Source of the DNA: a virus
Taxonomy: Duplodnaviria > Caudoviricetes
Length of the DNA stretch: 64,000 bases
Direction: 5' to 3' (one strand)
IMG/VR virus record: IMGVR_UViG_3300031673_000001
Shown: piece by piece, positions 9,340-52,364 of the stretch
Layout: the number at the start of each line of letters is the position of its first letter
How positions within the stretch are numbered: the first letter of the stretch is position 1
Notes under the pieces: model-generated
Seen by the model: only the letters and a program-made list of their open reading frames with translations
Databases searched by the model: none
Told to the model about the DNA's origin: nothing
Program-made: the position numbers and the translations under genes

Positions 9340-9405
9340 TTCCCTTGGGGAGGGAATAACGAGCGGTTACTTCTTTGCCGGGGTTGCCGTTCAACGTTCC
9401 CTCCC
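9340..9405 (+). promoter_or_regulatory. GC-rich hairpin with an alternative pairing upstream of the PP2C gene
   Basis: GGGGAGGGAA (9347-9356) pairs with TTCCCTCCCC (9396-9405); inner GAGCGGTTAC/GTTGCCGTTC helix; competing TTCCCT at 9340-9345. Confidence 0.5.
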
Positions 9406-9428
9406 CATAACAATTACTGGAGAAAATA

Positions 9429-10238
9429 ATGCAAATAGATACTTTCATGACAATTGGAAAAAATCATAAAGTTTGTGAAGATTATATATTATCAGGAATG
9501 AATCCAATACCTTATATTATAATCTCTGATGGGTGCTCATCTTCAAAAGGAACTGATATGGGTGCAAGATTATTATGCTTTCTATCACAACAATATATTA
9601 GATTCAGAGCATCTTCAACTAATCACTTTGAACCAGATCATGATGAAATGGGTTTGTGGATCATTCATAATGCAGAGTTGGTTGGCAAGCAACTTGGTCT
9701 TCCAAAAAATGCTTTAGATGCAACTTTAATTATTGGTTATCAATATACAGAAGATATTATCAAAGTTCATTTCTATGGAGATGGTTGTGTCATTCACTTT
9801 AGACCAAACTATGGATCAATTGAAATAATTGAATACTCAAAGAATGCCCCATACTATCTTTCGTATAAGATTGATGATGAAAGGCATAACTTATATCATA
9901 GCATGAACCAACAAAGAATAATCAAAACTTATCTAATAGAACCAGAGTATGTAGAAATTTGCAATCCTTATGATAATAATAAAAGTGTTTTTAATTTTGG
10001 TCTTAGTGAAATAGATAGTGGTTTATTAATTGCATCTGACGGATTAGCATCTTTTATTAAAGATGAAGAAGGAGTTATTCCATTTCCTTCCTTTGTTAAA
10101 AATTTCTTTGCTTTCAAAACAACAAAAGGTGAATTTCTTAAACGACGTGCCAATAAAGAACTTATAACATTAGCAAAGGATGGAATTTATAATTATGATG
10201 ATCTTTCAATTGGCGCATTCCTTCTGGGGAGCGAATAA
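9429..10238 (+). CDS. PP2C-like protein phosphatase (TerY-P triad type)
   Basis: GKNH..CED, ISDGCSS, DATL, GDG, ASDG, DDLS motifs. Confidence 0.85.
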   Translation: MQIDTFMTIGKNHKVCEDYILSGMNPIPYIIISDGCSSSKGTDMGARLLCFLSQQYIRFRASSTNHFEPDHDEMGLWIIHNAELVGKQLGLPKNALDATLIIGYQYTEDIIKVHFYGDGCVIHFRPNYGSIEIIEYSKNAPYYLSYKIDDERHNLYHSMNQQRIIKTYLIEPEYVEICNPYDNNKSVFNFGLSEIDSGLLIASDGLASFIKDEEGVIPFPSFVKNFFAFKTTKGEFLKRRANKELITLAKDGIYNYDDLSIGAFLLGSE

Positions 10239-11929
10239 TGAAAATAATAGTAAATGGTAAGGTTATCAACTTAAGTCAGAAAGATTTTGTTGCTAAAGGT
10301 GGAGAAGCTATGGTCTTCAACATAGGGGATGTTGCATATAAAGTATATGAAGATTTAAAGAAGATGGTTCCAGAAGCAAAATTAAAGGAATTATCAACAC
10401 TGTCAAGTCCAAATATAGTTTCTCCAAAAGATTTAATTTATAACACAAAAAAACAGGTTGCTGGTTTTACAATGGCATGGTTAGGAACAGATATGCCTGC
10501 TTTATGTAAACTCTTCACCACAGGGTTTAGAAAGGCAAATCAAATTACAAATGATCAAACATTAGAATTAGTTGAAAATATTAAAGAGAAAACCATATAC
10601 ATTCATGAGAATAACTTCCTAATTGTCGATGGAAATGAGCTTAATTACATGGTCGATAAGGACTTTGTAACACCATATTTCATTGATGTAAATGCCTGGA
10701 AGACTCCAAGTTTTCCTCCAACAGCAATCATGCCTTCTATTCGTGATTATAGATCAAAGATTTTCTCATCCTTAACTGATTGGTTTTCATTTGCAATCAT
10801 AAGTTTTCAGTTGTTTATTGGAATGCATCCTTTTAAAGGAAAACATCCCAATTATCCAGATAGAGATTTTGAATCTAGGGTAAAAAATTGTATATCAGTT
10901 TTAAATCCTCAGACTAAAACTACACCTAATATTAGAGATTTTGGTTTAATTCCAACATCCTATATGGATTGGTATTTAAAACTATTTGAAAAAGGAGAAA
11001 GATTACCACCACCATTAAAAGCAGGTCAAATCGGGCAAGTTAAAACTAGAATTATTTTAGTTAGCAACACAGATAATTTTCACATTAAAGAACTATTAAC
11101 GTTTAAGTCAGATATTATATTTCACAATGTTGTGAATAATAAACAAATAACTAAAACCCAAAATCATCTACACATTGACAAAGAAAAATATAAAGTTTCA
11201 CCTGATGTTGAGGTTATATTAACACCCATGGAAGGAATTCCAATCTTTATAAAAATTGAAGGTGAATATGCAAAATTTCATTGTCCAGATATTAATTATA
11301 ATCTTAAATCTATTGACATAAAATGTAATGAAAAAATGATAATCAACAATATATTATTTCTAAGAAATAGTGGAAAGCTTATTGAAATAGCTTTTTATGT
11401 ATCAGGAAAAAATATATTAATTGGATCAAAAACCGTCTGGTCAATTGAACCCATTTCAAGTCAAATACTTAGTGGTGTTATACATCAAAGTATTTTGGGC
11501 AAATCATTTATTACTATTCCTTTACCAACATATCATAAGAGCTCATCAATTGTTAAAAAAATTCCAGAGTTTGATGATTATAAAGTCATTGATGGAAAAC
11601 ATCAAAATAGAATTTGTATGTTTACCTTATATAAAAATGATGAATATAGCAGAGCAACACTCACATTTGATGACTCTTATAATAGGTATAAAATAGATAT
11701 TAAAGAAGGAATAGACTATACACCAATCAACTTTATTGTTTTAGACAATGGAATTTGTATATCAATCACAGATGATGATGCAGTTGAAATATTTTTGAAT
11801 AAAATTGACAAACCTGATGTAAAAAGAATAGAAGATCCAGAAATCAACTCTGTGATGAAACTATGTAATGATGGCGTTCAAGTAAGAGTATTTAAAGGAG
11901 AGAAACTTTTTGCAATTAAAATGAGGTAA
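10238..11929 (+). CDS. Ser/Thr protein kinase with long C-terminal region (TerY-P triad type)
   Basis: KGGEAMVF Gly loop, AYKVY, VDGNELN, FID, TDWFSFAII.FQLF.GMHPFKG. Confidence 0.85.
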   Translation: MKIIVNGKVINLSQKDFVAKGGEAMVFNIGDVAYKVYEDLKKMVPEAKLKELSTLSSPNIVSPKDLIYNTKKQVAGFTMAWLGTDMPALCKLFTTGFRKANQITNDQTLELVENIKEKTIYIHENNFLIVDGNELNYMVDKDFVTPYFIDVNAWKTPSFPPTAIMPSIRDYRSKIFSSLTDWFSFAIISFQLFIGMHPFKGKHPNYPDRDFESRVKNCISVLNPQTKTTPNIRDFGLIPTSYMDWYLKLFEKGERLPPPLKAGQIGQVKTRIILVSNTDNFHIKELLTFKSDIIFHNVVNNKQITKTQNHLHIDKEKYKVSPDVEVILTPMEGIPIFIKIEGEYAKFHCPDINYNLKSIDIKCNEKMIINNILFLRNSGKLIEIAFYVSGKNILIGSKTVWSIEPISSQILSGVIHQSILGKSFITIPLPTYHKSSSIVKKIPEFDDYKVIDGKHQNRICMFTLYKNDEYSRATLTFDDSYNRYKIDIKEGIDYTPINFIVLDNGICISITDDDAVEIFLNKIDKPDVKRIEDPEINSVMKLCNDGVQVRVFKGEKLFAIKMR

Positions 11930-11931
11930 TT

Positions 11932-12165
11932 ATGTTTAATCACACACTTATACTTTTTGTGGTTGTTGTTTTAATAATATCAATTTTAGGTTGGCAAAAT
12001 TCATCCAATAGGATACTAAAAATCGTATTATCGAAATATGAATGGACTCTATATGCCAAAAGTTTAAAAAGACTAATCCCTGGATATTCAGTTTATTATT
12101 TATACAAATGGAAAAGACAAGTCAAAAGAGAAACCAAAAAACAAAAATTGAAAGGGATGTTATGA
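11932..12165 (+). CDS. small membrane protein
   Basis: N-terminal hydrophobic helix. Confidence 0.55.
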   Translation: MFNHTLILFVVVVLIISILGWQNSSNRILKIVLSKYEWTLYAKSLKRLIPGYSVYYLYKWKRQVKRETKKQKLKGML

Positions 12166-12473
12166 AAATTGTTGATAAAGAGGACATACCAGAGGACGCA
12201 GTTGAAATGCATTTATACGATTGGCAAAATGTAATGATGCCAAGAGGATCTAGACAAAAAGAATCAATATATGAAATTATCTTCCCAAGATTGGTTGAAT
12301 CATTCCTATCTTTCACTGATCCAAAATATGGTGACAATCCACATATTGAAGATTTATTAAAAACTATGTCTAAAAATCTTTTAGGTGAAATGCTCAACGC
12401 TTGGGAAGATTTTTTAAATAATCCAACGGTAGAAGAACGAATGTATGAAATTAAAAAAAGAAAGGAGATTTAA
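12162..12473 (+). CDS. hypothetical protein
   Basis: Start re-assigned to ATG 12162 (AAGGGA RBS, ATGA overlap with the previous gene). Confidence 0.55.
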   Translation: MKIVDKEDIPEDAVEMHLYDWQNVMMPRGSRQKESIYEIIFPRLVESFLSFTDPKYGDNPHIEDLLKTMSKNLLGEMLNAWEDFLNNPTVEERMYEIKKRKEI

Positions 12474-15418: not shown

Positions 15419-16873
15419 TTATGCACCAATAGATAGAGTTGCAATACCATTACTTCTAACAAGTGCAGTCGCATAACGACTCAAGATTGTTAGAGAAGGT
15501 GTGTAACCCAAAGGATACGGATGCAAAACTGCTGGGACATAAGGAGCGTAGAAATAAATAGCTTTCAGTTCTTCTACTGGTTTGTAGACCATAACCATTG
15601 TACCTTGTGTGACAACGGCAGATGTTAGAACTTTCCACTTTCCACCAGCAACTGTAGCTGATCTATATCCCACATCTCCATCCACACTTGATGTTCCAGT
15701 GTAGTTGAATGTCTGTAGGTCTTCAAGGATAGCAACATCTAGGGGGTTAGCAAGAATGGTATTTCCTGCATCAATGTTGGTATCTGTATAGATCTGACCA
15801 GATAGTTGATTCAGTACTGGGATGATATTTTCATGCCAATACTTTGTTCCCCATGTATAAGCGGTTGGTGGGGTACGAGTAAATGATCCTGCGTGCGAAG
15901 CAGCATTCAGACGTGTATTTGCTGTAATCAATGCATTGATGATTTCTCTATCAATGTCTAGAGCAACTTGTTGACCCAGAATGTTTACGATTTCAGCTTG
16001 CATAGAAACATCAAACAGAGCTCGCATATCTTGCTCCATATTGACAGTCCAGTTTGCGCTGATCTGTCTGTCTCTTGCATACAGTCTTACCTTATCTACG
16101 TTTAGAGTAACTGATGGGTTCACTCTATTTTCTTCCAGTGAAATTGTCACTGTGTAACGTACATATGTAACAGTACCGGTAGCACTAGAAATATCCACTG
16201 TACCATTCAAGTAATCAACTTTACCGGAAACAACATCTGCTGATCCTACTGTAACACTTTGTGAGAAATGTCCTTCAACAGCTGGTAGAATAGACACTGA
16301 TGTCCATGCTGTACCGTCTGCTGAAACTGCTGTGATCTCAAAATCTCTTTCAAGATGAGCTTGTGTACTTGTCAATGTTGGACTAGCTGTTGCGAGAACA
16401 TCATAAGAAGAACTCGGAACCGGAATTGAAGCAGCAACAGGTGTTCCAAATGCAACACCCTGAGAAATATCATTTGATGTTACAGGAGCATCATATGTGC
16501 TTGAACTGTTTGATGGAGTAAACTTTGCTTTGATGAAAGCTTTGATTGTTTCTGGTTTATCCATTGGTGATACAGTTACAGCTTCTTTTGCAACTAGTTT
16601 GGGGTAGAAAACACGAAGAATAGGTAATGTTAATGTTTCATAAGGATTGATCTGAAACATTGAATTTTCTAACAGATTAATTCTTGTATTTTCTGCAAGT
16701 ACTAAAAATTGTTCACGATCTCTTTTGTTCTCAATTGATTCTGCCAATCCTGTAGCATATGCTTCAAATGCTGCATCGTCGACTAATACAGCTCGAAGAT
16801 TGCCAGGTTTACTTGGGTCTACGCCACTAATTTTTTTGGTTGTAGCATAAACCTCTTGAAGTAATTCTTTCAT
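15419..16873 (-). CDS. major capsid protein, T4 gp23-like
   Basis: PILR.FYPKLVA..AVTVSPM, RQISANWTVNMEQDMRA, EI..IL.QQVALDIDREII, FYAPYVP, SRYA. Confidence 0.92.
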   Translation of the reverse strand: MKELLQEVYATTKKISGVDPSKPGNLRAVLVDDAAFEAYATGLAESIENKRDREQFLVLAENTRINLLENSMFQINPYETLTLPILRVFYPKLVAKEAVTVSPMDKPETIKAFIKAKFTPSNSSSTYDAPVTSNDISQGVAFGTPVAASIPVPSSSYDVLATASPTLTSTQAHLERDFEITAVSADGTAWTSVSILPAVEGHFSQSVTVGSADVVSGKVDYLNGTVDISSATGTVTYVRYTVTISLEENRVNPSVTLNVDKVRLYARDRQISANWTVNMEQDMRALFDVSMQAEIVNILGQQVALDIDREIINALITANTRLNAASHAGSFTRTPPTAYTWGTKYWHENIIPVLNQLSGQIYTDTNIDAGNTILANPLDVAILEDLQTFNYTGTSSVDGDVGYRSATVAGGKWKVLTSAVVTQGTMVMVYKPVEELKAIYFYAPYVPAVLHPYPLGYTPSLTILSRYATALVRSNGIATLSIGA

Positions 16874-17049
16874 AAAATCCTTCCTCCTAATAATTTTTTA
16901 ATAACGTTATTAAAAATCGAGACACTGATCTCAAGTCTTTCAATTATGTTCTAAATTTTTTTAAGAAAGAGTTTTCAACTTTTATAGGCAAAATTTATAG
17001 GCAGGATTAAGTTAGAATCTTATTTTCTTTTGACGCTTAAGATTCTAAC

Positions 17050-17463
17050 TCATTTTGAAAATCGTTTAGTTATCGTTTTCAGTGTGTTTCCCAAATGAAA
17101 ATCTATCTTTTCATCAGATAATTTATTAACTATCTTAAGTAAAATGATAGTTTCATGTTTTAAACTTCCTTCATAGACAAGTCCAGAAATAATCATCTTT
17201 TCTATTCTATCAAGTAGTTTCAATATCTTTTTAACTCGATTAAATTCTAACATTAATACTTGAAGACTTTCTTTATTTTCTTTTACTTCAAGTTTCTTTT
17301 TTTTATAGTCGTTTTCTAAATCCTTTGTAGAATTTAAATAACCACTATACATATCATCAAAAAGAGGATAAATATTAGAAATAATATTATCAGCTAATAT
17401 AATTTTTGAATGATCAATATTTTCCTCAACAACATCCGGAATTTTAGTTCTTTCAACTATCAT
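17050..17463 (-). CDS. hypothetical head-module protein
   Basis: 137 aa helical ORF. Confidence 0.65.
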   Translation of the reverse strand: MIVERTKIPDVVEENIDHSKIILADNIISNIYPLFDDMYSGYLNSTKDLENDYKKKKLEVKENKESLQVLMLEFNRVKKILKLLDRIEKMIISGLVYEGSLKHETIILLKIVNKLSDEKIDFHLGNTLKTITKRFSK

Positions 17464-17750
17464 AATTCACTTCCTAATTGTTCTAAAAGTTCATTTTGTT
17501 TTGATTCAATATCTTCTTTTATTAAAGATATTCTTCTTTTCACATCCTCAATTAATTTTTCTGATTGACTTAAAAGATTCCCCTGTTTACCAACTCTATT
17601 TTTTATAGTATTAATCTTTTCTTCAACTGATTGCATATCATCTTTTAGTTTAAAATGTGGATCAGTTTTACAAATTGAAAATATTCTATTAATTGCTTGT
17701 GGTAGCATTTCTTTTCTATAAGGAATATTATCTAATATTTCAATTTCCAT
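17460..17750 (-). CDS. hypothetical coiled-coil head-module protein
   Basis: 96 aa ORF. Confidence 0.65.
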   Translation of the reverse strand: MEIEILDNIPYRKEMLPQAINRIFSICKTDPHFKLKDDMQSVEEKINTIKNRVGKQGNLLSQSEKLIEDVKRRISLIKEDIESKQNELLEQLGSEL

Positions 17751-17765
17751 TCATATATCCTTTCT

Positions 17766-18206
17766 TTATTCAGCATATTTTTGTTGTGAAAGCTGTTGAA
17801 ATCTAGACTTAAGTGCTCCAGCTTCTCCACCAACCTTACTCATTTTTGCATGAAATTTTTGTTTGCACTTGTCTGGACTCTTAGTTTTCATACATTTATT
17901 TGAAGCTTGTTTAAGAGCATTTAATTGAGCATTTTTTCCAGCTGATTTAGCTCTTAACATGCATAATGCTTTCTCTTTGCCTGGTAAATCTTTACATTGT
18001 CTAGCTGCTTTTGTAAAGTAATTCTTATATAAATTAAATGCCATATTGAAAGCTGAAAAGACACTAACTGCTGCCAGAACAGGTGCAAAACTCATTCCTG
18101 CTGCCCCAACTGCTGCAGTTGCTCCTCCTCCAGCTAAACCTGCAACAGTACTACCTCCAGGCACCTCTTGTAATTGAGTTAAGTATTCTTCAATAAATTC
18201 ACTCAT
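17766..18206 (-). CDS. putative internal head protein, C-x10-C-x22-C-x8-C paralog 1
   Basis: Short acidic leader ending LQE, Gly/Ala hydrophobic segment, basic 4-Cys domain. Confidence 0.6.
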   Translation of the reverse strand: MSEFIEEYLTQLQEVPGGSTVAGLAGGGATAAVGAAGMSFAPVLAAVSVFSAFNMAFNLYKNYFTKAARQCKDLPGKEKALCMLRAKSAGKNAQLNALKQASNKCMKTKSPDKCKQKFHAKMSKVGGEAGALKSRFQQLSQQKYAE

Positions 18207-18220
18207 CTTTTACCTCACTA

Positions 18221-18886
18221 TTAAACCCATCTCTTAAAAAAAGTAATTACTTTTGTTTCAATCAATTTATCAAAATACTCAGGCATAAAACATCTTCCAT
18301 TCACACAAACTATGCCACTTGAAGTTTCCGTTAAGCAATCACTTTCAAACTTCATTTCATTAAAGTCAACAACAGCGGATTTATGTGATGGCATAGACAC
18401 TGCATCAAAAGCTATGATTGTAAGAGGTCCTTTAACTTCATTATAATCTTGCTTTCGATCAAGTTCAGCAAGTCCTCTCATAGAAAATCCGACTCCTGTT
18501 CTATCCTTTAAAAGACCAAGTAATATTCCACCATTTGGAGTGCTTGTTGTTTCCATCTCACCAAATAAATGTTTTCCCCTAAATTCATAATCACGAATTA
18601 TATGAGATACTTCTTTTAATGCAACAGTGGTTTGTCTAATACCATCAACTTGTTGACTCCCTGTTGGTAATGGATGATCAAGTTCAGAATAGAAAGCTCT
18701 ACGTCTCATTCTTGAAGAACAATTTGTCATTCCTTCATCAAGAACACTTGAAGGATATAGTCTATGATTTTGATTAACTTCATCAACTGATTGAATGGGA
18801 CATCTAAATATAGCTTTGCTAGGAGTCTCCTTAATCATTGTTGCTTCGGAAAAGATTTGTTGTTCTATAATTAACGAAGGATTCAT
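18221..18886 (-). CDS. prohead core protease, T4 gp21-like
   Basis: N.N.R.Y, ELDHP (His), GFSMRG (Ser), FDAVSMPSH; start re-assigned to MNPSL at 18886. Confidence 0.9.
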   Translation of the reverse strand: MNPSLIIEQQIFSEATMIKETPSKAIFRCPIQSVDEVNQNHRLYPSSVLDEGMTNCSSRMRRRAFYSELDHPLPTGSQQVDGIRQTTVALKEVSHIIRDYEFRGKHLFGEMETTSTPNGGILLGLLKDRTGVGFSMRGLAELDRKQDYNEVKGPLTIIAFDAVSMPSHKSAVVDFNEMKFESDCLTETSSGIVCVNGRCFMPEYFDKLIETKVITFFKRWV

Positions 18887-18887
18887 T

Positions 18888-19442
18888 TTATAGTGCTCCC
18901 ATTTTAGCTTTTTCTTTATTAATTTTCCCTTGTAATTTTGATTTACATGAAGTTGGATCTTTTGTTTTCGCACATTTTGACATACCAGCTTGCAGTGCTT
19001 GAATTTTAGCAGCTTGTGCCTTTTTCTTAAATTCCTTCATACAAATAGCTTTTTCTTTACCACGTTTGTCTTTACACGCTCTAGCTGCTTTGGATAAATA
19101 ATCTTTATATACCCAATATGAATAAGATATAATTAAACCTGCTAAAGCAGCTCCCACAAGGTGTTTACTCTTTACTCCATGTTGACTAAGATAATTAGCA
19201 AGTTTTTGGACTGCCCCAACACCTGAATTAGCAGAATCTGAAGATCCTCCAATCATTGCCTCAAACAAATTTTTATCCTCTTCTGTCAACTTGTCTTTAA
19301 CTTCACCACTCACTAACATATATTTAACTTGATCATCACTTGCTTCCATAATAAATTGACCAATAGCAAGTTTTTGTTCTTTTAAAAGATGATCATGTAA
19401 TTTAACATATTCCAAAGCAAATATTTTTAATTCTTTATCCAT
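18888..19442 (-). CDS. putative internal head protein, paralog 2
   Basis: Shared leader MxxELKIFALEYVKLHDHLL...; hydrophobic helix; 4-Cys basic domain. Confidence 0.6.
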   Translation of the reverse strand: MDKELKIFALEYVKLHDHLLKEQKLAIGQFIMEASDDQVKYMLVSGEVKDKLTEEDKNLFEAMIGGSSDSANSGVGAVQKLANYLSQHGVKSKHLVGAALAGLIISYSYWVYKDYLSKAARACKDKRGKEKAICMKEFKKKAQAAKIQALQAGMSKCAKTKDPTSCKSKLQGKINKEKAKMGAL

Positions 19443-19444
19443 TT

Positions 19445-19990
19445 TTATAGTTCTCCCATTTTAGCTTTTTCTTTATTAATTTTTGCTTGAAGTTTTGCTT
19501 TACATTTAGCTGGATCTTTCGTTTTCGCGCATTTTGACATACCAGCTTGAAGGGTTTGAACTTTAGCAGCTTGTGCTTGTTTCTTATATTTATTTATACA
19601 ACTTGTTTTTTCTAAACCACCTTTTTCTTTACATGCTCTAGCTGCTTTAGACCAAAATCTTTTATATGCCTTTATAGCTAATACTGCTGCTGTAGCCACT
19701 ACTGCTGCTGTAGCTACTGCTGCTCCTCCCCCTGCTCGAATACCAATTTCCTTTCCATACTGAGCACCAGATTTAAAAGCTTCATAATCGCTATTACTCC
19801 ACGATGCCTCAACCAAACTTTTATTTTCTTCAGTTAGACCATATTTAACTTCACCGCTCAATAGCATATATTTAACTTGATCATCACTTGCTTCCATTAT
19901 AAAATGACCAATAGCAAGTTTTTGTTTCTTCAAAAGATGATCATGTAGTTTAACATATTCCAAAGCAAATATTTTTAATTGTGTATCCAT
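19445..19990 (-). CDS. putative internal head protein, paralog 3
   Basis: Same architecture as paralog 2. Confidence 0.6.
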   Translation of the reverse strand: MDTQLKIFALEYVKLHDHLLKKQKLAIGHFIMEASDDQVKYMLLSGEVKYGLTEENKSLVEASWSNSDYEAFKSGAQYGKEIGIRAGGGAAVATAAVVATAAVLAIKAYKRFWSKAARACKEKGGLEKTSCINKYKKQAQAAKVQTLQAGMSKCAKTKDPAKCKAKLQAKINKEKAKMGEL

Positions 19991-20017
19991 TTTAATTCCC
20001 CTCCAGAGGATTCATCT

Positions 20018-20581
20018 TTACATTGCTCCCATTTTAGCTTTTTCTTTATTAATTCTTTTTTGAAGTTTTAATTTACATGTAGATGGATCCTTGCTTTTTT
20101 CACACCTTGACATACCAGCTTGTAGTTCTTTAATTCTTGCTGCTTGTGCTTGTTTCTTATACTTCACCATACAATTTGTTTTTTCTAAACCGCCTTTTTC
20201 TTTACATGCTTTAGCAGCTTTAGATAAAAATCTTTTATATATTGCATATGATGCTGTCACTACTGCTGCCACTATTGCTACTGCTGTTAAGGCATTCTGA
20301 ACACCTCGATTATAACCTTTATATCCACCATATTTCTCACCATGTTCAACTCCACTTTCCCAACCAGCTGCAAATGGACTCTTTTCTTGTATCAATCTTT
20401 TAGTTAACACTATATCTTCTTCTGTTAAATTATCTTTAACTTCTCCAGTTATTAGCATATATTTAACTTGATCATCACTTGCTTCCATAATAAATTGACC
20501 AATAGCAAGTTTTTGTTCTTTTAAAAGATGATCATGTAGTTTAACATACTCAAGTGCGAATATTTTTAATTCTTTACTCAT
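20018..20581 (-). CDS. putative internal head protein, paralog 4
   Basis: Same architecture as paralog 2. Confidence 0.6.
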   Translation of the reverse strand: MSKELKIFALEYVKLHDHLLKEQKLAIGQFIMEASDDQVKYMLITGEVKDNLTEEDIVLTKRLIQEKSPFAAGWESGVEHGEKYGGYKGYNRGVQNALTAVAIVAAVVTASYAIYKRFLSKAAKACKEKGGLEKTNCMVKYKKQAQAARIKELQAGMSRCEKSKDPSTCKLKLQKRINKEKAKMGAM

Positions 20582-20582
20582 C

Positions 20583-21446
20583 TTAATTCCCTCCAGAGGT
20601 CTTATCCTTATAATAATCTCTAATTTTAAAGTAAATTTCTTTTAAAAATTTATAGTAAGATATAATTATATCGTCCATCTTTTCTTTATATGAATCTATA
20701 TTTGAAGCTAAAATTTCAAAAAGTTCAATTGATTGAGAAACATATCTTCGTATTTCTGTAAGTTCAGGATCTGCTTCAGAAGCTAAATATGATTCGATTG
20801 ATGTTAACCTTGTATATATTTTTTTCAATTCATAGATTCTGCCAAGATCATGGGGAGATTTTTCTTCTTCAGCACCTGCACCACCCATTCCCATATCTCC
20901 GCCTGCTTCATCACCCATGTCCCCCATATCTCCGCCCATATCTCCGCCCATATCTCCGCCTGGTTGCTCTGCGTTCATAGATGGGTCGGTTGTAGCTGGA
21001 TCTGCTGGAAGCGCCATATCATCTCCAGCATTCTCTTCCGGTGCTTCCGCAGAAGGATCCATTTCATCTTCGCCTTGTTCTCTAATTTTAATATCTTGGC
21101 CGTCAGATGTTCTCATTAATTTAGTTGGTTTTTTATTTTCTTCTTCATCTTCATCTCCAGAAGGAGCAGAATAATCAAAAGGTTGACCACTCTTATTATC
21201 AGGAAGTTGCGCTGCACTATGTCCACCTCCACCTGCTGGTAAAGCACCAATGTTAGAACTTGTTTTATATGGTTCTTCTGTTGATAAATCATTATCTGCA
21301 GAACCTTTATAACTAACATCACCAGCAATAGGTTTCATAAATGGACTACTATTAGAATCGTAATCCTTATCTACAACTTTAAACTTGTTAGATTTTATAA
21401 TCGTTTTATCATATAATTTTGTTAGTGTATCAGTGGATGATGCCAT
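20583..21446 (-). CDS. acidic low-complexity head-module protein
   Basis: GGDM repeats (CCCATATCTCCG tandem near 20921-20960); helical C-terminus. Confidence 0.6.
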   Translation of the reverse strand: MASSTDTLTKLYDKTIIKSNKFKVVDKDYDSNSSPFMKPIAGDVSYKGSADNDLSTEEPYKTSSNIGALPAGGGGHSAAQLPDNKSGQPFDYSAPSGDEDEEENKKPTKLMRTSDGQDIKIREQGEDEMDPSAEAPEENAGDDMALPADPATTDPSMNAEQPGGDMGGDMGGDMGDMGDEAGGDMGMGGAGAEEEKSPHDLGRIYELKKIYTRLTSIESYLASEADPELTEIRRYVSQSIELFEILASNIDSYKEKMDDIIISYYKFLKEIYFKIRDYYKDKTSGGN

Positions 21447-21449
21447 AAT

Positions 21450-22100
21450 TTACCTCTTAACTTTTAACATAGCAGATAGTTGTTTTTCTATCTCTGTTAT
21501 TTTAGCTTTCTTTTCAACAACTTTATGTTGCAATTCTGCTACTTTCTTCTTAATTTTCATCTCACACTTTTGTTTATCTTTTGAATGGGCACATAATTTT
21601 ATCTTTGATTTTAAAATTTGTATCTGTTTTTCAAGAGCAGCAATATCAACTTGATGATGGCATTTTTTCTGTGCAGGACTATTGAGTTTATACTGTCTAC
21701 ATTTTTTTGGTTTTAATTGTTGTTTAATAACTTTACTAATCTTATATGATGCATAGATTATAGCAAGTGCAGCAGCAGATCCAGCAATTACCTGTTGAGT
21801 TGTAGTTAGATTTGACAAAGTTTTAGAAATTTGATCTCCAAGATCACTAATATCACCTGCTGGATCTATTTTTTCAAAAGCATCAAGACCCTTTTTACTG
21901 GTATCTATACTCCATTTTGCCTCTAATAGCATCTGTTTAAGATCTTCTACCATCAAATCCAACTCTACATGCTGAACACTTTCCAAATAAATTTCCAATA
22001 TAGGATTATTTATTTCAGTTATATTCTCTCTTAAAATTCCACCTTTTTTTAAAGATTGATTTTCTTTTAAAATTTTTAAATAAGTCTCATCTGATAACAT
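21450..22100 (-). CDS. putative internal head protein, divergent paralog 5
   Basis: Hydrophobic helix followed by a C-x12-C-x22-C-x8-C basic domain. Confidence 0.5.
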   Translation of the reverse strand: MLSDETYLKILKENQSLKKGGILRENITEINNPILEIYLESVQHVELDLMVEDLKQMLLEAKWSIDTSKKGLDAFEKIDPAGDISDLGDQISKTLSNLTTTQQVIAGSAAALAIIYASYKISKVIKQQLKPKKCRQYKLNSPAQKKCHHQVDIAALEKQIQILKSKIKLCAHSKDKQKCEMKIKKKVAELQHKVVEKKAKITEIEKQLSAMLKVKR

Positions 22101-22112
22101 TTTTCTTCCTCC

Positions 22113-24077
22113 TTAGAAGCTTCCACCCATTCCACCCATTCCACCCATTCCACCACCCATTTCATCTTCTTTCTTGGATGGGTCAACTGCTGTTTCAACT
22201 TTTTCATCAATATCATATTTTTTAATTTCTGCCCAATCAAAGTTAGGTAGATATTTTCTCTTTGAGTATTCTTTTGGAATACCAATTCTTTCAAGACTAT
22301 CAATCAGTCCAGTTATTTCGTTCATATATCTAGCTTCTCTTTCAAATTGTAGTGATTTTGGTGTGGGTAATGCAACTTCTATATTATCTAATAATGTTAA
22401 TGCTTCTTCTGGATCAATTATATCAAAAATCTTTTGAACTAATTCTGTAAATTGATGTGTCAAATACTTTTGATGACCAATAACAGTTCTAGCAAAAAGA
22501 ATATTTTCTTCGCTTAATGCTGCTTTGTTTGAAAGGTTCTCTTCTATACCAATAAAACTTGGAGGAACACCCAAACTAGCAACCATTTGGTCTCTCATAA
22601 ATTTTAATTCATCAACCTTGCTTCTAACATCCACATTTCCCTCATTGAATGTAGAAATATCAACAAAAGGTTTTCCATCTTTTTGTGGAATATAAACATC
22701 TTCAAACGTAGTGATCATACTTGGAATTGTATCCACGGTTCCAAAGCTATCAAGACTTACTTTACGTTTTCTAAACTCTTCTTTCATAGCTTCAATTACA
22801 TTTCTAGCATCTCTTGGCAGACCAATTTCAACAGCAATCTTTCTTTTTTCTGTTGATCTAGAAAGTCTCTGAACAGCTAAAGCAGTTTCAAGAGCGATCA
22901 AAACCTTTCCTGCATATTGAACCCCATCAAAAATTGATTCTCCGTATGGATGGAATCTCGTTGATGGAATTCTAAAATGAACTACTTTATCGGGCGGAAC
23001 ATATCTAATTTGCATTGCTTCATTAATATCAGATCCTCGAACCATTGCTTTAATAATATCTACTAGTTCTCTATTATTTTTAAATTCCTTCATCTGTGGA
23101 ATTTTCTTTTCAACACTCTGTATAATAGATTTACATATTTGATTGACCATATCGTCTTCAAGAGCTGGTCCAATAATACCAAATGATGTAATATTTGGAA
23201 AAACTAAATATCCAAAGCATATTGGAAATAATGAACTCTGTAATTTTACAACCAAACTAGGTTTGTGAAAAACAAGATTTAAATTTTTTATTTTCCTTTC
23301 TAATTTTTTAGTTCTGTTTGCATCAATTTTATCTGCTGGTTCCGGAGTAGTTCTTTCCATTACTTCATTAAATGCTCTATAATCAATATCTACTTCAAAT
23401 TTAAAAGAATCTGCTTTTCCATTTACTTTTTTATGGACAAAACTTATTCTGTCAATATCTCCAGATTGAATTGATTCCTCTACTTGACTTAAATATGTTT
23501 TAGATTCTGCTAATATTGTTTTACTTGTTAATGCAGTTTTTGCACTTGCAATTTCACAAAAGAAATCACCAAATGTAAGAGTATTTTTAACAATTATATC
23601 AAGTCGTTCTTCTAACTTAATTTGTTTAATAATAGTTTTAACTCTTTTAACTCTTGACTCATTTGGTAACTCATCTTCTAAAAATGTTTTAGGTTTAATT
23701 TCAAGACTTATTTTTGTAATATCATCCGGAGACAATATATTATCAACTAAAACATTCAATGCTCTATGATTATAACTAATATGTGAAACAAGAGCTTCAT
23801 ATGTTTTATATCTATTTAATCTAGCTCCTTGTCCAAAAGCTGTTGGTCCTGATGATGCCTGTGCAAATATACCTCCTGACTGTGGAGATATTAACATGCT
23901 ACCAGTTGATTTAGATATCACACTCTTTACAAGATTTATATATCCAAGTCTTCCACTATTAGCTTTATATTTAATGATGTCTTTAGTTGCTTGATCTAAC
24001 TTTGCATCTACTTTTTGTGTTCGAGTGCCAACGAGAGTTGATTTTAATTGCGCATAAAGATCTTCAATTTTAGCCAT
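22113..24077 (-). CDS. portal protein, T4 gp20-like
   Basis: R.SRSTEKRKI.VEIG, EDVYIP.KDG, DELKFMRDQM.ASLGVP.SFI, EENILFAR.V..HQ. Confidence 0.9.
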   Translation of the reverse strand: MAKIEDLYAQLKSTLVGTRTQKVDAKLDQATKDIIKYKANSGRLGYINLVKSVISKSTGSMLISPQSGGIFAQASSGPTAFGQGARLNRYKTYEALVSHISYNHRALNVLVDNILSPDDITKISLEIKPKTFLEDELPNESRVKRVKTIIKQIKLEERLDIIVKNTLTFGDFFCEIASAKTALTSKTILAESKTYLSQVEESIQSGDIDRISFVHKKVNGKADSFKFEVDIDYRAFNEVMERTTPEPADKIDANRTKKLERKIKNLNLVFHKPSLVVKLQSSLFPICFGYLVFPNITSFGIIGPALEDDMVNQICKSIIQSVEKKIPQMKEFKNNRELVDIIKAMVRGSDINEAMQIRYVPPDKVVHFRIPSTRFHPYGESIFDGVQYAGKVLIALETALAVQRLSRSTEKRKIAVEIGLPRDARNVIEAMKEEFRKRKVSLDSFGTVDTIPSMITTFEDVYIPQKDGKPFVDISTFNEGNVDVRSKVDELKFMRDQMVASLGVPPSFIGIEENLSNKAALSEENILFARTVIGHQKYLTHQFTELVQKIFDIIDPEEALTLLDNIEVALPTPKSLQFEREARYMNEITGLIDSLERIGIPKEYSKRKYLPNFDWAEIKKYDIDEKVETAVDPSKKEDEMGGGMGGMGGMGGSF

Positions 24078-25468: not shown

Positions 25469-26476
25469 TTATTTATCTTCATCCTCGTCTTCTTCTTCAT
25501 CCTCGTCTTCTTCTTCTTCCTCAATTTCTTCTTTAAAAAGTTTAAAAGCTTCTTCTAGATCGTCTTGATCTGAATCTTCTGCATCTGGTCCACCAGGAAA
25601 TCCTGCAGCTTCTTCAACTTTTTTATCTACATCTAGATCTTTTTCTTCTTCTTCTCCACCTTCTTCTCCACCTTCTTCTCCACCTTCTTCATCTGTATCT
25701 TCTATTTCTTGCATCAATTTTTCAATTAGTTTATCTTCATTATAATTTTTTGGTTTTACCATTTGATCGTGACGATCTTTTCTATCAGGAACTTGACCAT
25801 CAGATGATCCTGTTCCAGCTTGATCTTCTCCGCCAACACCTTTGGTATCTTCCTCAGGACCTTTTGCTTTCTTTTCTTGTGGAGCATCTGGAACACCTTT
25901 GAAATCACTAGATACATTTCCATCGCTTTCTTCTACTGCTTCTTCTTCATCTCCTTCGTCTTCATCTTCATCTTCATCTTCTTCCATTTCTGAAATTAAT
26001 TTTTCAATAACTGCATTTTCTACTTCTTCTGACAAATCTACATCTGCTGATTCGTCAGTGTACTTTTTCTTCTTGGGAACATCATCGTCATCCCATTCTT
26101 TCTCACTAACCATCCCTTCTTTAGCAATGTCTTTACCTTTTTCATCTTTGGAAGCTGGAATTGTAGCAGCATCACTTGTTCCTGCTTGTTCCTCTCCACC
26201 CGGTCCTTCTGTATGTTCGGAACCAGCTTTTGATTTTACACCCTTATCATTTTCATAATCAGACTCGGAAACTTCCACACCTTTCTCTCGCTTCTCATTG
26301 AAGTAATACCTTTCGAGAACACTTGCAGCATCCTTATAAGTGGGTAGTTCGCCATCGCCTTCATACGACAAAATCGGGTCCAACATCGGACCTTTGACAT
26401 CTACATTATTTGACGTATCAAATTCACTAATAGCTTCTTTTAATAACTGTTGATATGATACAACTTTTTTGCTCAT
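25469..26476 (-). CDS. very acidic prohead scaffold/core-like protein
   Basis: Glu/Asp-rich, internal repeat (GG.EQAGT twice), location in the head module, own promoter motif. Confidence 0.55.
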   Translation of the reverse strand: MSKKVVSYQQLLKEAISEFDTSNNVDVKGPMLDPILSYEGDGELPTYKDAASVLERYYFNEKREKGVEVSESDYENDKGVKSKAGSEHTEGPGGEEQAGTSDAATIPASKDEKGKDIAKEGMVSEKEWDDDDVPKKKKYTDESADVDLSEEVENAVIEKLISEMEEDEDEDEDEGDEEEAVEESDGNVSSDFKGVPDAPQEKKAKGPEEDTKGVGGEDQAGTGSSDGQVPDRKDRHDQMVKPKNYNEDKLIEKLMQEIEDTDEEGGEEGGEEGGEEEEKDLDVDKKVEEAAGFPGGPDAEDSDQDDLEEAFKLFKEEIEEEEEDEDEEEDEDEDK

Positions 26477-52286: not shown

Positions 52287-52364
52287 GGTCCAGTAGCTCC
52301 AGTGGTTAGAGCAGGAAACTCTAAATTTCCGTTTGCGAGGGTTCGAATCCCTCCTGGACCACCA
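52287..52364 (+). tRNA. amber suppressor tRNA (anticodon CUA)
   Basis: GGAAA-CTCTAAA-TTTCC; canonical D and T arms; CCA. Confidence 0.88.

Follow-up and report, generated by a model that had tools for sequence, protein, structure and literature searches.

The virus recorded in IMG/VR as IMGVR_UViG_3300031673_000001 (Duplodnaviria; Caudoviricetes) is an uncultured jumbo phage whose head is of the T4 type, and five paralogous genes in its head module probably encode proteins of the prohead core or the head interior. These proteins would be targeted to the prohead by a propeptide and cut after a glutamate. The whole stretch of DNA analysed, hereafter the window, is 64 kb of an AT-rich (~31% GC) phage contig recorded at about 237.6 kb, and the number of paralogs refers to these 64 kb. 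An earlier annotation of this DNA (the original prediction) had placed five open reading frames (ORFs), ORF17766, ORF18888, ORF19445, ORF20018 and ORF21450, around the protease and portal genes; all five are present on the minus strand, among the genes for portal, protease and capsid proteins. We favor the prohead reading because the synteny matches the T4 gene order 20-67-68-21-22-23, because the module includes an S77 protease, because a cleavage-type motif is enriched at the leader end, and because some N-termini resemble the capsid targeting sequence (CTS) of T4. The charge contrast between an acidic N-terminal and a basic C-terminal part, the constraint on the sequences and their paralogy with variable copy number point the same way.

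The five genes are homologous and share one architecture. When a search profile built from 21 leader-type homologues was run on the 292 ORFs of the window, ORF20018, ORF19445 and ORF18888 matched with E-values of 1e-82 to 1e-86, and ORF17766 and ORF21450 with those given in Table 1; none of the remaining ORFs scored below E 0.007. ORF21450 is the weakest paralog and its score has a compositional bias, but its helix and cysteine pattern are the same. As originally described, a hydrophobic helix and the pattern C-x10(12)-C-x22-C-x8-C occur in all five ORFs, which the profile also ties together; the spacing is 10/22/8 in four of them and 12/22/8 in ORF21450, and this pattern was found in no other ORF of the window. 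The helix is composed mainly of Ala, Val and Gly, its best 19-residue Kyte-Doolittle windows ranging from 1.25 to 2.06. The isoelectric point (pI) of the N-terminal part is 4.1-5.9 and that of the part C-terminal to the helix, which holds 21-28 Lys and Arg residues, is ~10.1.

ORF20018, ORF19445 and ORF18888 are tandem copies with a common leader. In ORF20018, the leader (residues 1-58) is followed by I-Q-E at 64-66, a G-x3-G repeat, a helix at 97-115 and cysteines at 126/137/160/169; in ORF19445, the leader (1-58) is followed by L-V-E at 59-61, a helix at 88-106 and cysteines at 120/131/154/163; the corresponding parts of ORF18888 are listed in Table 1. The N-termini of the other two differ in kind. 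ORF17766 opens with the 14 residues M-S-E-F-I-E-E-Y-L-T-Q-L-Q-E, so that L-Q-E ends at 14, and continues with a long Gly/Ala hydrophobic stretch and cysteines at 71/82/105/114. ORF21450 has an N-terminal Y-L-K-I-L-K-E and an acidic N-terminal half, with L-K-E at 13 and L-L-E at 58-60, then a helix at ~104-122 and cysteines at 134/147/170/179.

The original prediction had assigned the tandem copies a near-identical leader of about 48 amino acids (aa). A common acidic leader does exist; it spans ~58-61 aa, and at 79-90% identity in amino acids and 83-88% in nucleotides (nt) it is less uniform than that description implied. A 192-nt leader block (19257-19448, 19805-19996 and 20396-20587; 84-88% identity) and a 228-nt C-terminal block (18886-19113, 19443-19670 and 20016-20243; 78-84% identity) each occur three times. 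The nucleotide similarity of the middle segment equals that of codon-shuffled controls for two pairs of copies and is marginal for the third (reached by 6/300 shuffles). The proposed divergence after the leader, followed by later convergence, thus holds in that the middle DNA is near random; it needs amendment in that the hydrophobic helix, conserved in character and not in sequence, sits inside the DNA-variable segment. Synonymous divergence (dS) between paralogs is 0.30-0.54 in the flanks, and the ratio of nonsynonymous to synonymous divergence (dN/dS) is 0.16-0.26 in the leader and 0.40-0.64 in the C-terminal module. Since its similarity is near random against this flank dS, the middle has diverged further than point substitution at the rate of the flanks would allow, which implies replacement of the middle, its reshaping by insertions and deletions, or homogenisation of the flanks. 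The three window copies did not form a clade in a tree, where ORF20018 joined single copies of relatives, P0002 and P0004 (from contig L004), with support 89/83; the remaining branches were poorly supported, and the triplication cannot be dated from this tree.

The ends of the leaders carry a motif of the kind expected for a gp21-type protease. T4 gp21 cleaves after L/I-x-E (PMC9026906). Among 130 family proteins, 69% contain [LIVMF]-x-E within 12 residues after the leader, compared to 34% upon shuffling (0/500 shuffles reached the observed value), and when only full-length leader matches are counted, 86% compares to 39%. The reversed motif was not enriched, and the phiKZ-type motif [SAG]-x-E was depleted after the leader. 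At the level of the motif, therefore, the Glu sites originally proposed (LFE, LVE and IQE after the three leaders, LQE in ORF17766 and LLE in ORF21450) are present and belong to an enriched class. The leader is also the best conserved part of the close homologues, and short N-termini like that of ORF17766 recur across the family. The leader itself holds another conserved L-T-E, also a candidate site (residues 52-54 of ORF18888), and therefore the exact position of the candidate cleavage is ambiguous. In a MAFFT alignment, the cleavage site of T4 gp23, L-T-E preceding Ala, aligned with an L-A-E preceding Ser in the capsid protein of the window (residues 43-45), and this motif is kept in two orthologues.

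The T4-type head module spans 24077..15419 on the minus strand, in the order portal, ORF21450, acidic 287-aa protein, ORF20018, ORF19445, ORF18888, protease, ORF17766, 96-aa protein, 137-aa protein and capsid (Table 1). The protease matched Pfam S77 at E 2.6e-6 (27.5 bits, cutoff 27) and PHROG 207, head maturation protease, at E 8e-23; its start is the ATG at 18886, which gives the length of 221 aa seen in all relatives and leaves no overlap with ORF18888. The acidic 287-aa protein, which matched nothing in Pfam, PHROG or NCBIfam, is probably a component of the prohead core or scaffold. The nearest cultured relatives of the capsid protein are those of the jumbo phages phiR1-37 and AR9/PBS1, at ~25% identity, and a megablast search of the head module against 50,697 GenBank phage records returned no match. 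The stretch occurs in soil and marine-sediment metagenomes, RNA runs carrying small shares only.

Table 1. Features of the head module and of the ORF18888 product, with window coordinates
Feature	Coordinates	Strand	Remarks
Portal protein (T4 gp20 type), 654 aa	22113..24077	-	Pfam Portal_T4 E 4.8e-21; upstream boundary of the module
Paralog 5, ORF21450, 216 aa	21450..22100	-	Profile E 7e-8; accessory gene
Acidic 287-aa protein	20583..21446	-	(G-D-M)n low-complexity center; helical, nearly invariant C-terminal ~85 residues
Leader-type paralog 1, ORF20018, 187 aa	20018..20581	-	
Leader-type paralog 2, ORF19445, 181 aa	19445..19990	-	
Leader-type paralog 3, ORF18888, 184 aa	18888..19442	-	Sequence behind the structure models
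ORF18888 leader, residues 1-58	19269..19442	-	Acidic; helices predicted at 3-15, 21-33 and 36-45
ORF18888 L-F-E, residues 59-61	19260..19268	-	Candidate protease site, from the motif
ORF18888 variable segment, residues 62-112	19107..19259	-	Low-confidence linker, then hydrophobic helix 94-112
ORF18888 basic four-Cys part, residues 113-184	18891..19106	-	Cys pairs 123/134 and 157/166
Prohead protease, T4 gp21/Peptidase_S77 type, 221 aa	18221..18886	-	
Short-leader paralog, ORF17766, 146 aa	17766..18206	-	Profile E 1.4e-23; core gene
Conserved helical 96-aa protein	17460..17750	-	Candidate scaffold component
Conserved helical 137-aa protein	17050..17463	-	Candidate scaffold component; start overlaps stop of the 96-aa gene
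Major capsid protein (gp23 type), 484 aa	15419..16873	-	Pfam Gp23 E 1.1e-33

The same order was found in eight related contigs: portal, an optional 21450-type gene, an acidic protein of ~280 aa, a leader-type gene, the 221-aa protease, a short-leader gene (138-146 aa), the 96-aa and 137-aa genes and capsid. One leader-type copy precedes the protease and one short-leader copy follows it, both being core genes in every relative examined, and the acidic gene is always directly upstream of the leader-type paralog. The tandem triplet is confined to the window; in line with the original suggestion that relatives might differ in copy number, the eight contigs carry one leader-type gene each. The 21450-type gene is present in contigs L004, L009 and L010 and absent from L001 and L003, and one ENA contig has an additional 182-aa gene after the short-leader gene. 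Synteny extends to a distant member with a 329-residue spacer (L013), which is encoded directly before an S77 protease. Two adjacent family genes occur in L011/L012, among unrelated genes in L011, and L014 (1-6341), from another phage, has at least six consecutive C-module genes, one for a 659-aa protein with three modules, outside a head module and beside T4_baseplate and gp25-like genes. A scan of representative genomes gave a single match, the 19-kb contig L004 binned into a Heimdallarchaeota metagenome-assembled genome, which we read as a mis-binned phage contig and not as evidence for an archaeal host. In L004, the closest relative, the gp23-type capsid gene appears split at 9384-12343 into ORFs of 207 and 292 aa, preceded immediately by a 406-aa ORF of opposite orientation; possible causes are an intron, the insertion of a homing endonuclease and a faulty assembly. 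In L001 (1-1169), genes for Cpn10, ribosomal protein S21 and thymidylate synthase are encoded upstream of the portal region, at a distance of a few kb.

In T4, the prohead core contains gp21, gp22, gp67, gp68, Alt and the internal proteins (IPs) IPI-III, the latter directed there by propeptides 10-19 residues long at the N-terminus (PMC9026906, PMC5694885, PMC3012670), and of the core components gp67 (PIP) and gp68 are both substrates of gp21 (PMC9026906, PMC5694885). Genes 67 and 68 occupy, between the portal and protease genes, the very slot of the leader-type paralogs, and likewise encode small helical proteins, one half being acidic and the other basic; gp68 in particular is acidic in its N-terminal half and strongly basic at its C-terminus, and in gp67 homologues a helical N-domain ends in hydrophobic-I-E-G-E. 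Unlike the paralogs, gp67 and gp68 are devoid of the hydrophobic helix, the cysteine motif and any paralog expansion. The comparison with gp68 yielded an hhalign probability of 0.1% (E 0.5), and nine leaders searched with hmmscan against Pfam PF17634 (GP67) gave no match at E<=10, T4 gp67 itself scoring 163 bits. Matches of the leader to the single T4 gp67 sequence were weak (blastp, 11/29 identities, E 0.015; hhalign, E 0.002 and 0.024), and the idea that the leader is a gp67 homologue was dropped when comparison with a nine-phage gp67 profile gave E 0.08, a value equalled by 20/200 column shuffles.

These likenesses raise an alternative, namely that the paralogs act in assembly only, as minor scaffold or core proteins analogous to gp67 and gp68 that size the prohead core, are cut and are largely expelled, being neither retained nor delivered. 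The core genes of both kinds indeed flank the protease at fixed, T4 67/68-like positions in every relative, gp68 shows the same charge asymmetry, T4 core protein fragments mostly exit the head (PMC9026906), and the leaders contain several further [LIVMF]-x-E sites, such as I-M-E and L-T-E. The basic C-terminal module, however, is almost free of them (0-3 per protein); with its compact three-helix prediction and invariant cysteines it looks like a persistent product, and tandem arrays and members outside head modules would be unexpected for a stoichiometric scaffold part. We consider this alternative improbable. The core-gene status of the leader-type and short-leader genes nonetheless fits a gp67/gp68-like structural role at least as well as it fits accessory effectors.

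The second point of comparison is with the T4 internal proteins. IPI, IPII, IPIII and Alt also have a short N-terminal targeting peptide ending in hydrophobic-x-Glu and a basic mature part (pI 9.6-9.7 for mature IPII and IPIII), and the N-terminus of ORF17766 is akin to the M-K-T-Y-Q-E-F-I-A-E of IPII/IPIII in length, in aromatic and acidic content and in its terminal hydrophobic-x-E, a likeness of style only. In both cases strongly divergent mature parts follow a targeting sequence that is kept, an arrangement described for T4-like phages as a means of bringing varied proteins into the capsid (PMC3012670, PMC9026906). The differences are several: the tandem copies have a folded leader of 58 residues instead of 10-19; the whole mature protein varies in T4, whereas here the C-module is conserved and a short middle varies; and the hydrophobic helix and the location inside the head module are particular to the present genes, those of T4 being scattered. 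No homology to IPI, IPII, IPIII or Alt was detected, and no Pfam, PHROG or NCBIfam family matched.

A third comparison is with processed inner-head paralogs of jumbo phages. phiKZ gp93-95/162/163, SPN3US gp53/54 (Pfam PF12699) and SPN3US family B are served by a gp21-related protease that removes long propeptides after Glu, and such families number 2-7 and 2-20 copies among related phages (PMC5694885). Their proteases, in contrast, prefer S/A/G-x-E, and the proteins are ~30 kDa once processed and lack the helix and four-Cys module. PF12699 did not match the five ORFs at E<=0.1. Podovirus ejection proteins (T7 gp14/15/16, P22 gp7/16/20) are stored in the capsid and ejected along with the DNA, to become inserted in the host envelope or to cross it, and they may serve as a functional model for the hydrophobic helix. 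They undergo no protease processing, are far larger and belong to short-tailed phages that need a trans-envelope channel, whereas the present phage has T4-type head genes and its relatives carry contractile-tail baseplate genes.

The paralogs belong to a large family. A word-indexed search retrieved 23 close relatives, all without names, and an exhaustive profile search with a threshold of E<=0.001 retrieved 1,560 clusters (50% identity), of which 969 also passed E<=1e-10. The original prediction did not recognise the family, and indeed neither Pfam, PHROG nor NCBIfam has a model for it, for all its size in metagenomes; these searches yielded sub-threshold noise only (Imm71, DUF1081, PqiB, VirB5 and a few PHROGs of unknown function). 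A tblastn search with ORF18888 and two distant members against 50,697 GenBank phage records gave no match, a scan of IMG/VR with the alignment of close homologues found no relatives, and a sequence search of the PDB returned nothing below E 1. Among 168 members fetched, 125 combine leader and C-module, 33 have the C-module only (many of these with a divergent leader or a short N-terminal peptide of the Y-L-x-x-L-Q-E type), and 10 are fusions of two or three units. All four cysteines are kept in 175/175 C-modules, 141 of which are spaced 10/22/8. What the present analysis adds to the original prediction is thus a large family, invariant cysteines, motif enrichment and synteny conserved in relatives.

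AlphaFold2 modelling of ORF18888 from a 21-sequence alignment gave a mean predicted local distance difference test score (pLDDT) of 79.8, with a leader of three short helices (85-93), a middle at 47-57 and three long C-terminal helices. The C-module alone (residues 94-184, 102 sequences) reached a pLDDT of 87.8 and a predicted template modelling score (pTM) of 0.70, with helices at 3-29, 36-66 and 70-90 of the module and cysteines 30/41 and 64/73 bracketing two loops. Since a helix of 31 residues separates the two pairs in this model, the four cysteines should not be able to form a single metal cluster within the monomer; they may instead form two disulfides stapling the loops, or intermolecular sites. 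A CHCH twin Cx9C hairpin was rejected on the spacing (10/22/8) and because the pairs bracket loops and do not lie within one helix, and a zinc ribbon or finger because CxxC is lacking and the pairs are at opposite ends of the 31-residue helix. The fold search advised in the original prediction produced no specific match to a known family: Foldseek found nothing at E<=0.001 in the PDB and BFVD, full-length and C-module models gave generic helical matches only (best VIA-align Z 8.8, within the helical background), and the only AFDB match, A0A1V5ZNS2, is an uncharacterised family member. Co-folding of the leader with the C-terminal domain of the acidic protein and with the 137-aa and 96-aa proteins scored 0.01, which gives no answer either way.

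The original prediction had seen the variable middle as a swappable segment giving effectors, and this part appears overstated. The segment is only ~30-50 residues long in the window, is disordered in the AlphaFold2 model and, in the family, often carries G-x3-G repeats: three or more chained copies precede the module in 27% of modules, including those of ORF20018 and ORF19445. Across the family, leader and module are separated by anything from 10 to 329 residues (median 41.5), and the spacers of 20 longer members contained no Pfam domain, PF12699 included, nor did PHROGs match any of the ten also searched against them. Because of this length, the modelled disorder, the G-x3-G repeats and a 10-329 range without recognisable domain, a linker or an oligomerisation/glycine-zipper segment appears a better fit than effector cargo. 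A subfamily with spacers of 80-165 residues (e.g. P0092, P0080, P0119, P0136 and P0154) has a second conserved motif, approximately F-V-x-E-L-F-N-x-x-P-V/I-G, after the leader, which suggests an additional small conserved element.

Family-wide, the hydrophobic helix is transmembrane-like, with a mean hydropathy of 1.80, 75% of modules reaching the 1.6 threshold. Ala makes up 34% of it, Val 14% and Gly 11%, and behind it, immediately ahead of the first cysteine, lies a net charge of ~+3. This profile, together with a linker free to vary in sequence and length and an adjoining portal gene, would suit cleavable inner-membrane tethers or nucleators, in which helix and module sit at the membrane, the leader lies in the core at the portal vertex, and cleavage frees the prohead. 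Consistent with such a role, proheads of T4 and SPN3US assemble on the inner membrane and are freed only after proteolysis (PMC9026906). Topology is an obstacle, however: with the leader in the cytoplasm, the module (~+16) would be in the periplasm, contrary to the positive-inside rule, and with the module in the cytoplasm, the acidic N-terminal part of 60-90 residues would have to cross the membrane and so leave the side of the prohead. Tethering also hardly explains why there should be three to five paralogs, or arrays of at least six genes, and T4 proheads are attached to the membrane by the portal itself, via YidC (PMC9026906). We regard tethers as very unlikely.

A single hydrophobic helix with a basic cytoplasmic tail would also be seen in small membrane proteins that have nothing to do with the capsid (acting, for example, in superinfection exclusion, in the control of lysis or in remodelling of host membranes) and merely reside in a late head operon, and one source gives a fragment a pilin-like label, owing to the hydrophobic segment. 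Some members do lie outside head modules. Against this stand the strict synteny with portal, protease and capsid genes in all close relatives and in the distant L013, and the conserved acidic leaders with protease-type motif ends; the T4-CTS-like N-termini, moreover, would have no role in such proteins. This explanation strikes us as exceedingly unlikely.

Returning to internal head proteins as the favored reading, we propose that an N-terminal propeptide would draw each protein into the scaffolding core during prohead assembly, this propeptide being a short T4-CTS-like peptide in ORF17766 and ORF21450 and a 58-residue, three-helix acidic domain in the tandem copies. The S77 (gp21-type) protease would then cut after [L/I/V/F/M]-x-Glu at the propeptide end, releasing a mature product of ~90-155 residues, depending on the paralog, made of the variable, often G-x3-G-rich segment, the Ala/Val/Gly helix and the Lys-rich three-helix module, and the basic module would remain in the capsid with the DNA. 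The internal-protein model of the original prediction finds support in the head module, the gp21-family protease, the [LIVMF]-x-E leader ends and the basic charge of the predicted mature parts; the membrane action it attached to them is speculative. In particular, ejection of the product with the DNA, entry of the helix into the host inner membrane and a role of the cysteine pairs as disulfide staples in the extracellular virion appear rather unlikely.

Several observations weigh against assigning the paralogs to the head interior. No member is known from a cultured phage, the tblastn search with three members having found no counterpart in the GenBank phage records, and it has no detectable homology to T4 gp67, gp68 or the phiKZ-type internal proteins. 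A transmembrane-like helix would be unusual beside the DNA in a myovirus-type head, and could instead indicate a membrane location in the infected cell. Members occur outside head modules, as in L011, among unrelated genes, and L014, beside baseplate genes. Finally, the shuffle statistics tend to overstate the independence of the motif counts, since hydrophobic-x-Glu is common in Glu-rich helical sequence and the members are related.

Other features of the window were noted alongside. The portal C-terminus (22113-22170, minus strand) ends in a Gly-Met repeat, G-G-G-M-G-G-M-G-G-M-G-G-S-F, and the (G-D-M)n tract of the acidic 287-aa protein lies at 20830-20980, Gly/Met/Asp low complexity being common to these two head-module proteins. 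Upstream of the portal operon, a 335-aa ORF without family assignment (25469-26476, minus strand) is Glu/Asp-rich and extremely acidic, and its position is kept in relatives (genes of 341-344 aa in L001 and L003). ARAGORN predicted 25 tRNA genes at 40142-62125 (plus strand), of which the one at 52287-52364, with anticodon CTA and labelled tRNA-Pyl, may act as an amber suppressor. The stop codons of window ORFs with 100 aa or more are TAG (11), TAA (56) and TGA (11). Fusion of the paralogs by amber recoding, considered in view of this suppressor tRNA(CUA), was rejected: all five ORFs stop at TAA.

Internal and ejected capsid proteins are poorly understood in large phages, where they bring finished proteins into the cell, anti-defence factors, polymerases and DNA protectors among them. 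The present family is modular, its parts being leaders of two types, a linker that varies and a conserved helix with a four-Cys module. If the leaders target the prohead, they would provide a sequence tag by which packaged proteins could be predicted from metagenomic jumbo-phage genomes, and a second, larger capsid-targeting module beside the T4 CTS, which is in use for packaging proteins. Membrane insertion of the mature part, if it occurs, would be a new feature for T4-type heads. The proteins might even represent a widespread and hitherto unrecognised class of capsid-delivered, membrane-active proteins in jumbo phages with T4-type heads, a possibility we deem distinctly unlikely. In that case, the acidic propeptide would keep the glycine-zipper/Ala-rich helix soluble and target it to the prohead, and the protease would arm it; disulfides between the cysteine pairs, acting as a redox switch, would staple the module in the virion and be reduced on entry; and the ejected product would form an inner-membrane oligomer that forms or anchors a DNA conduit or depolarises the cell, with segment and copy number tuned to the host. 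Such proteins, if they exist, would be the contractile-tail counterpart of the podovirus ejection proteins.

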